From positions 1-64,000 of the IMG/VR virus record IMGVR_UViG_3300011972_000003: a stretch of DNA of 64,000 nt; one strand, 5' to 3'. The stretch is from a virus. How positions within the stretch are numbered: position 1 is the stretch's first letter; each line of letters opens with the position of its first letter. Positions 8,721-8,974 of the stretch are shown here, piece after piece. Both the position numbers and the translations under genes were made by a program. The notes under the pieces were generated by a model. The model searched no databases and had not been told where the DNA came from. It saw only the letters and a list, made by a program, of their open reading frames with translations.

Positions 8721-8974
8721 TGTTGCGGTGGGTAAACCTTGTGAATTGCTGGGATATCCTACATGTGGTGGTGAGGACAATCAGCAGCCCTTATGGGTTC
8801 AACGACTATCGAAACTGTAGTAAAGGAGTAGAGTACACTTAAGCGAGTGGAAGCGCAAGGATAGAGGGTTAAACCTTTATGTGATATAGTCTGAACGTCC
8901 TTAGAAATAGGGAGCTGGAGTAATTTCCGGGATAAGAAGTAGCGAGCTTATCTGAACATAATTGAGCAAGAAAG
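8721..8974 (+). ncRNA. group I self-splicing intron, no ORF, interrupting the RNAP beta gene (boundaries approximate, within about 10 nt)
   Basis: The coding homology of beta breaks at ..STVKST and resumes in frame at IVSQLLELGLS (cf. MNIGQILETHLG). The intervening 254 nt contain P7/R-like GGGTTCAACGACTATCGAAA (8795..8814) and S-like GATATAGTCT (8883..8892). A U precedes the proposed 5' splice site and a G ends the intron. The element is homologous to the intron in the topoisomerase gene. Confidence 0.6.

Follow-up and report, generated by a model that had tools for sequence, protein, structure and literature searches.

A predicted td-related group I intron without an ORF in the RNA polymerase beta-subunit gene of an uncultivated phage

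The window analysed here, a 64,000-nt stretch of DNA, derives from an uncultivated phage of ~180 kb and contains the genes of the beta and beta' subunits of a multisubunit RNA polymerase (RNAP), which lie on the + strand within 2690..9589. Its assignment to a virus, namely a phage, rests on its relatives, viral contigs from IMG/VR that reach 185 kb, on two tail-fibre-like proteins encoded in the window and on the overall gene content. The upstream gene (2690..5812) specifies a 1040-aa beta' homologue (Pfam RNA_pol_Rpb1_2) that contains the motif ADFDGD and is one unsplit gene; beta, with 947 aa after splicing, is also unsplit. A megablast search with window positions 6000-10000 against 50,697 phage records returned zero matches, and tblastn with the beta protein produced matches at only about 25% identity. 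In a PDB search, the phage beta matched bacterial beta subunits at E 1e-16 and, less well, entry 7s00, the AR9 non-virion RNAP, at E 3e-7.

Read without splicing, the beta ORF spans 6492..8735 and comprises 747 codons. Its product matches Pfam RNA_pol_Rpb2_6 (E 5e-18) between residues 455 and 737, which cover profile positions 15-262 of 373, and the match ends five residues before the frame enters ...STVKSTCCGG and then the TAA stop codon at 8733-8735. Beyond the insert, another frame takes up the homology to beta again, from IVSQLLELGLS...GANFRNEGQSLGEMEFWAY up to position 9589, the 254-nt gap (2 mod 3) accounting for the frame change across the insert. This break at a stop codon and resumption in another frame, which a preliminary description of the locus had pointed out, is borne out. 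Exon 1 maps to 6492..8710 (+), as defined by the ORF list, by Pfam and, for its end, by helix P1 and the intron-less alleles described below; its 3' end reads ...GAC AGC ACC GT, with U8710 as the last base. Exon 2 (8965..9589, +) starts with A GCA AGA AAG ATA..., that is (V)ARKIVSQ..., contains its first in-frame ATG at 9023 and ends with a stop codon at 9587-9589. The predicted spliced product of 947 aa differs at 3 residues from the uninterrupted protein of a relative (P0001) and aligns continuously with Thermus beta across the junction. In most related contigs, gene callers give 747-aa and 188-aa ORFs for the beta gene.

The insert was identified as a 254-nt group I intron without an ORF (8711..8964, +) both by the Rfam model RF00028 (Intron_gpI) and by the uninterrupted gene of four related contigs (L001, L002, L003 and L134), which lack exactly this stretch. 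RF00028 aligned over its entire length (model positions 1-253 of 253) to 8701-8914 with 53.2 bits and E 1.2e-12, just 3 bits over the gathering score of 50, in a search of 8500-9200 (701 nt) run with laxer filters. A default Rfam scan of the full 64-kb window at gathering thresholds matched 0 RNA families, and a scan of the whole window in E-value mode returned the intron of a gyrB-like gene alone and missed that of beta. These misses are speed-filter artefacts in AT-rich (36% GC) sequence, not evidence of absence. The intron itself has 43.7% GC, versus 35-36% in the exons. The two motifs originally proposed as group I hallmarks are present, namely GGGTTCAACGACTATCGAAA at 8795-8814, inside which the 5' strand of P7 falls, and GATATAGTCT at 8883-8892, which corresponds to J8/7 plus the 3' strand of P7 (GAUAUAGUCU, 8883..8892, +). 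The core motif recurs, exactly or nearly so, at 56898 (+) and 48835 (-); neither place had an Rfam match, and both were judged to be due to chance. A single ORF is listed within the window's intron (8720..8842, 40 aa, beginning with TTG); it crosses the ribozyme core and is probably not a real gene.

Helices P1, P3 to P9.2 and P10 were written out from the Rfam alignment and the sequence, and all of them, on the + strand, consist of standard pairs throughout. P1 joins 8705-8712, made up of exon bases 8705-8710 and intron bases 8711-8712, to the internal guide sequence at 8723-8730 by 8 standard pairs, with the U8710·G8725 wobble marking the 5' splice site; this helix is found in the Rfam alignment and in the minimum free energy (MFE) fold, and is invariant in 11 variants of the intron. 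P10 connects intron bases 8719-8724 with exon 2 bases 8965-8970 through 6 standard pairs (C-G, U-A, U-A, G-C, U·G and U-A). The Rfam alignment further provides P3 (8737-8743/8854-8860, 7 standard pairs), which forms a pseudoknot relative to P7, and P4 (8747-8752/8781-8786), which is seen in the MFE fold as well and encloses, within 8747..8786, both P5 (8757-8760/8774-8777) and P5a (8762-8764/8771-8773). P6 is a 4-bp mini-hairpin, GCCC-UUAU-GGGU (8787-8790/8795-8798; MFE), at the place where relatives hold an ORF. P7 pairs GACUAU (8804-8809) with AUAGUC (8886-8891) by 6 standard, invariant pairs that also appear in the MFE fold. In the Rfam alignment a 44-nt insertion separates P7 from P3' and contains a clear 5-bp P7.2 hairpin (8836-8840/8845-8849; MFE), while P7.1 (about 8814-8834) is weak, with at most 3 pairs. 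An insertion between P7 and P3' is typical of subgroup IA. Downstream lie the P8 hairpin (8861-8867/8874-8880), P9 with a GAAA loop (8898-8903/8908-8913), P9.1 (8915-8920/8925-8930) and P9.2 (8931-8936/8947-8952), the latter three with standard pairs and recovered in the MFE fold, and finally the invariant terminal G (omega G) at 8964, which was assigned from the intron-less alleles and the rule of a U before and a G at the end of the intron. A P2 helix is absent from the 254-nt intron.

Unconstrained MFE folding independently recovered P1, P4-P6, P7, P7.2, P8, P9, P9.1 and P9.2, that is, of the helices written out from P1 to P9.2, all but P3, as the P3/P7 pseudoknot is beyond MFE prediction; the MFE of the intron is ordinary for its composition (z = -0.9). 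Across 11 ORF-less variants that are 98% identical, 99.7% of the cells are paired, versus 39-51% when the partners are slid. The G8866-C8875 pair of P8 is exchanged for A-U in 4 variants, G·U in 1 and A·C in 1; A8777G in P5 keeps pairing as U·G, A8863G likewise results in a G·U pair, and a single U·U is found at the end of P9.1. Most variable positions are in loops or joining regions, and the ribozyme core, P1, P10 and the terminal G show no change. Covariation is shallow among variants that are 98% identical, with 1 compensatory pair and 31/500 shuffles reaching the observed score. The population variation in the intron fits the drawn structure and is too shallow for statistical covariation. 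The original proposal of an ORF-less group I intron in a phage beta gene is sustained by an RF00028 score over threshold, by the core helices and by relatives that precisely lack the intron.

The true boundaries of the intron are 8711..8964, 10 nt to the left of the 8721..8974 given in the preliminary description, of which the insert length stands and the coordinates do not. Both pairs of sites delimit a 254-nt insert preceded by U and ending in G, and the open frames that they leave do not differ in length; the reading of these features alone is thus unable to separate them. Splicing after U8720 and G8974, which would join the exons as ...STVKST/IVSQ..., is nonetheless very improbable, since in the Rfam alignment it is U8710·G8725 that takes the place of the conserved U·G wobble in P1. 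The six bases before U8710 form 6/6 pairs with the guide, extendable to 8 bp, whereas those before U8720 form at best 5/6, rich in G·U. Similarly, the guide bases directly 5' of G8725 (8719-8724) pair with 8965-8970 over 6 bp, whereas an exon 2 starting at 8975 would have no P10. All four intron-less alleles read ...GAT TCA ACT GT/C GC(T/C) CGA AAA ATA..., i.e. DSTV ARK I, and distant homologues also keep ARK (VVARKN, VFARKN), not KST. This ARK aligns with SRM of Thermus beta, and its arginine with that of the PSRMN motif of bacterial beta, which KST would remove. P1, P10, the intron-less alleles and the conservation of ARK therefore place the intron at 8711..8964. The junction peptide becomes ...STV/ARKIVSQ instead of the one first proposed, with a GT/A Val codon split after its second base, and the predicted spliced RNA reads ...GACAGCACCGU/AGCAAGAAAG... 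at the junction. Excision of 8711..8964 would restore the frame as in the naturally uninterrupted alleles, with the aforementioned 3 differences in 947 residues.

Pattern and protein searches delivered 21 distinct related contigs, most of them from IMG/VR and up to 185 kb long, which carry three kinds of allele at the beta site. No intron is present in 4 contigs (L001, L002, L003 and L134), among which L001 is a 180-kb scaffold with DNA 96.7% identical to the window's gene. An ORF-less intron of 253-263 nt is the commonest form (15/21 contigs), and in the remaining 2 contigs (L004, and L130, which equals L144) the P6 loop accommodates a 283-aa ORF, which brings the intron to 1,095-1,097 nt. 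The beta intron of L148 (IMGVR_UViG_3300008155_000018), of 263 nt, is 9 nt over the usual length.

Intron-containing and intron-less alleles also differ in the exon bases that flank the insertion site. The 17/17 intron-containing contigs read ACAGCACCGT/AGCAAG, versus ATTCAACTGT/CGC(T/C)CG in the 4/4 intron-less ones, the naive (intron-less) site being GCGGATTCAACTGTCGCTCGAAAAATAG and the recoded site GCGGACAGCACCGTAGCAAGAAAAATAG. Eight fixed differences, all of them synonymous, are located at -9, -8, -7, -6, -3, +1, +4 and +5 in a 14-nt patch, the upstream half of which (8702..8710, +) is altered at 8702, 8703, 8704, 8705 and 8708, and the downstream half at 8965, 8968 and 8969 (+). We infer that three of these changes create the P10 pairing, since the intron-less exon sequence CGC(T/C)CG would disrupt 3 of the P10 pairs. 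The patch is probably also protective against an endonuclease. Outside the patch, the window's exons have 25 differences in 600 nt from those of intron-less L001 and 56 from those of L002, while the exons of L004 have 18 differences from intron-less L002 and 55 from L001. The patch thus occurs on two flanking haplotypes, which indicates that intron and patch sit on backgrounds that also exist without the intron.

These exon comparisons suggest that the intron would be mobile through recombination with a very short co-converted tract, and that the intron-less alleles would be naive sites and not products of precise loss, because none of them retains the patch. As expected for a homing intron, mixed alleles (4 intron-less, 15 ORF-less and 2 ORF-bearing) and co-travelling markers were found in the set; as to an intron-encoded endonuclease, the intron of the window contains no ORF. 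We conclude that the family is a mobile, T4-td-like intron, of which the window carries the ORF-less form.

In the long form of the intron, the 283-aa ORF (P0111, or L004 5341-6192) replaces 9 nt, CCUUAUGGG, of the P6 hairpin, and its last 11 codons (...SSSTTIETVVKE, followed by the stop) are those of the P6'/P7 ribozyme core. A search of 5.8 billion proteins found just two homologues. Pfam assigned zero domains to this ORF at E <= 0.01 and, at E <= 10, solely T5orf172 (E 0.07) and a YacG-like zinc finger (E 0.23), whereas the PHROG collection matched it to phrog_3339, 'homing endonuclease', with E 0.0016. The protein has a Cys-rich N-terminal region and a T5orf172-like C-terminal region, and its single-sequence AlphaFold model reached a pLDDT of 32. 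Its position and these weak domain hints point to a putative homing endonuclease. It is 23% identical (E 4e-5) to a 241-aa ORF in the gyrB-like intron of L001, and both proteins end in SSSTTIET, a shared terminus encoded by the P6'/P7 ribozyme core. A tblastn search with both intron ORFs against the 64-kb window retrieved nothing, i.e. no trans-acting copy is present there.

The gyrB/topoisomerase II-like gene at 10946..13133 is interrupted by a second group I intron, matched by RF00028 at 11274-11572 with 63.3 bits and E 1.5e-15. This 331-nt intron (11293..11623, +), whose bounds derive from the uninterrupted gene of L005, is predicted to be spliced at GT/A in a Val codon (MNGV/GTKASNALS) and has core sequence in common with the beta intron. 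It is polymorphic as the latter is: the L001 copy carries the 241-aa ORF at 10698..11423, at a place corresponding to window ~11438-11472; the window copy is ORF-less; and L005 (7459..8244) has no intron.

Several other features of this region were recorded. Directly 3' of the RNAP beta gene lie two small thioredoxin-like genes with WCxxC motifs (9591..9875 and 10116..10382, +), the L001 homologues of which match Pfam Thioredoxin, and next downstream a lipoprotein-like ORF and an RlpA-like DPBB protein (10612..10959). Beyond the gyrB-like gene, an AAA+ ATPase gene at 14815..17566 (+) appears fractured at Walker A by a split intein and a free-standing ORF. Its first ORF (14815-15231) reads ...LFLSNPG and then CFTEDTKVITDKGELTFGELL..., with the look of an intein N-terminal block; the middle ORF (15238-16257, 339 aa) has no Pfam match, and its HYVGDNSSTMQERLFNSLFGH resembles a GIY-YIG motif; and the third (16244-17566) begins ...VYDLEVDHPSHNFKLAAGNFVHN/CGKTTIV..., where an intein C-terminal block leads into the remaining P-loop. 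Further genes encode an actin-like protein (19139..20137, +; Pfam MreB-like_C, E 9e-12, and Alp7A_like_C) and an SPFH/Band 7 protein (20695..21534, +; E 1e-12), with possible roles in segregating or positioning DNA and in organising membranes.

Among known introns, that of the T-even td gene is related to the beta intron, with ~76% identity over intron nt 173-252 (P7' to P9.2), in a stretch immediately downstream of I-TevI and inside the joined td coding sequence. The best database match lay in Providencia phage PSTCR6, where it covers nt 86-248 at 69.5% identity and is flanked by two DNA polymerase fragments, and the core motif GGTTCAACGACTATCGAAA was detected in at least 120 viral contigs. 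The td intron belongs to subgroup IA2, and it is through td that the beta intron shows sequence relatedness to an accepted member of this subgroup. The td intron and the T4-like DNA-polymerase introns (Aeromonas Aes phages, PSTCR6) have the same ribozyme class and core motifs as the beta intron, which differs from them in its host gene, RNAP beta, in having no P2 and, for the window's copy, in having no ORF. The phage lineage is also different from that of T4-like phages, with matches to 0 of the 50,697 phage records by megablast. The I-TevI ORF resides in the P6 loop of the td intron; the ORF of the long relatives sits in the P6 loop too, although it is not a recognisable homologue of the GIY-YIG enzyme I-TevI.

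Introns of phage RNAP genes are already documented, so that calling such an insertion rare, as had been done at first, was an overstatement; what is new here is the insertion site and the host lineage. Phage PhiPA3 has an HNH endonuclease, gp210, in a group I intron of its RNAP beta gene (Birkholz et al., Science 2024; PMC11620839), which lies after two conserved Asp residues in the region of E. coli D675 (PMC11620839). The PhiPA3 intron and that of the window both occupy a highly conserved motif of the beta gene of a multisubunit RNAP, and in both cases relatives with and without the intron coexist. They differ in that the window's intron, which has no ORF, is inserted considerably closer to the C-terminus, in the PSRMN-like motif, and in that the ORF carried by its relatives does not resemble HNH enzymes. 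In Bacillus phage AR9 and the Staphylococcus MarsHill-like jumbo phages, RNAP subunit and gyrase genes are described as often disrupted by introns, and the intron content varies among close relatives (bioRxiv 10.1101/2020.12.14.422802). The pairing of an RNAP intron with a gyrB-like one is therefore common to the window and to the AR9/MarsHill-like phages, which on the other hand have two RNAP sets with split beta and beta' subunits; the window has single genes for beta' (1040 aa) and beta (947 aa), which are unsplit, unlike the phiKZ- and AR9-type subunits. In gut Jug phages, short group I introns number 18.5 per genome on average (PMC12880540).

Collectively, we consider it very likely that 8711..8964 is an ORF-less phage group I intron of IA type, related to td and inserted in the PSRMN-like motif of the beta gene, from which it is predicted to be spliced. 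The steps described next are taken from the standard group I pathway, with the anatomy being what was observed at this locus. The pre-mRNA would fold so that the exon sequence CACCGU pairs with the guide GCGGUG (P1, with U8710·G8725), and an external guanosine bound in P7 would attack after U8710. The guide would then re-pair with AGCAAG of exon 2 (P10), G8964 would take the G site, and exon ligation would yield ...ACC GU/A GCA AGA AAG... and the 947-aa beta (...DSTVARKIVSQ...). Unspliced, the message would be translated only as far as the stop codon at 8733-8735 and give a 747-aa fragment devoid of the C-terminal catalytic regions. The window's copy would represent the minimal form of a mobile intron, with a 4-bp hairpin where two relatives hold an ORF in the P6 loop, and would most likely have arisen when an ORF-bearing copy lost that ORF. 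For its spread, such an ORF-less copy would depend on recombination or on an endonuclease provided in trans.

The dependence of beta on splicing, without which the protein is incomplete, and the prevalence of the ORF-less form (the commonest allele, in 15/21 contigs), though unspecific, could also be accommodated by an intron retained as a regulator of RNAP production, through conditional splicing or as a timing switch. We deem this quite improbable, as intron-less alleles coexist that are 96.7% identical at the nucleotide level and encode essentially the same protein, which makes the intron dispensable. Moreover, an ORF-bearing form occupies the identical site and the intron of the sister gyrB-like gene shows a like polymorphism, so that the alleles fit the expectation for a homing cycle and not for a fixed regulator. 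Of the two dynamics suggested at the outset, that of a selfish element is thus upheld by the presence/absence and ORF/no-ORF polymorphism, while nothing in this analysis points to the regulatory one.

It is quite improbable that the insert is the relic of a dead intron and that beta is made as two assembling polypeptides, in the manner of the phiKZ-like split beta. Jumbo phages with working split beta and beta' genes do exist (PMC7598289), and the locus is annotated by gene callers as two ORFs, of 747 and 188 aa; however, an exon 2 fragment started at ATG 9023 would miss ARKIVSQLLELGLSNLSRA, including the conserved Arg. A relic is likewise at odds with a ribozyme core, P1, P10 and terminal G that are invariant in 11 variants while the loops vary, with exon bases beside the intron recoded such that P10 pairs, and with close relatives that encode one 947-aa beta protein. 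Finally, despite the metagenomic source, an assembly artefact or chimera of one contig is so improbable as to be negligible, because the same insert recurs at the same site in 17 contigs that stem from separate assemblies and samples and include a few variants.

The reading of the insert as a member of a mobile intron family leads to a more tentative proposal, namely that a homing and immunity contest is ongoing among co-circulating ~180-kb phage strains, driven by an unclassified family of endonucleases, and that its footprint would be the intron, the ORF-bearing sibling and the invariant recoding of the eight synonymous positions. We hold this to be possible, though doubtful. If true, the 283-aa enzyme might, like PhiPA3 gp210, cleave the RNAP gene of competitors that lack the intron upon co-infection, and the ORF-less copy of the window would, as a consequence, be an immune, 'resistant' allele. 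Interference competition of this kind has been demonstrated for PhiPA3 only (PMC11620839).

The beta intron is ordinary in kind and its case alters no concept. For annotation, the correct product is a single 947-aa beta with the junction ...STV/ARK..., where gene callers split the gene. Since a default Rfam scan missed both introns of the window, the number of introns in AT-rich phage metagenomes is probably being underestimated. The PSRMN-like motif is a new insertion site that adds to the few introns known in phage RNAP genes. One phage population offers here the naive site together with the ORF-bearing and ORF-less forms, a series suited to the study of the homing cycle.
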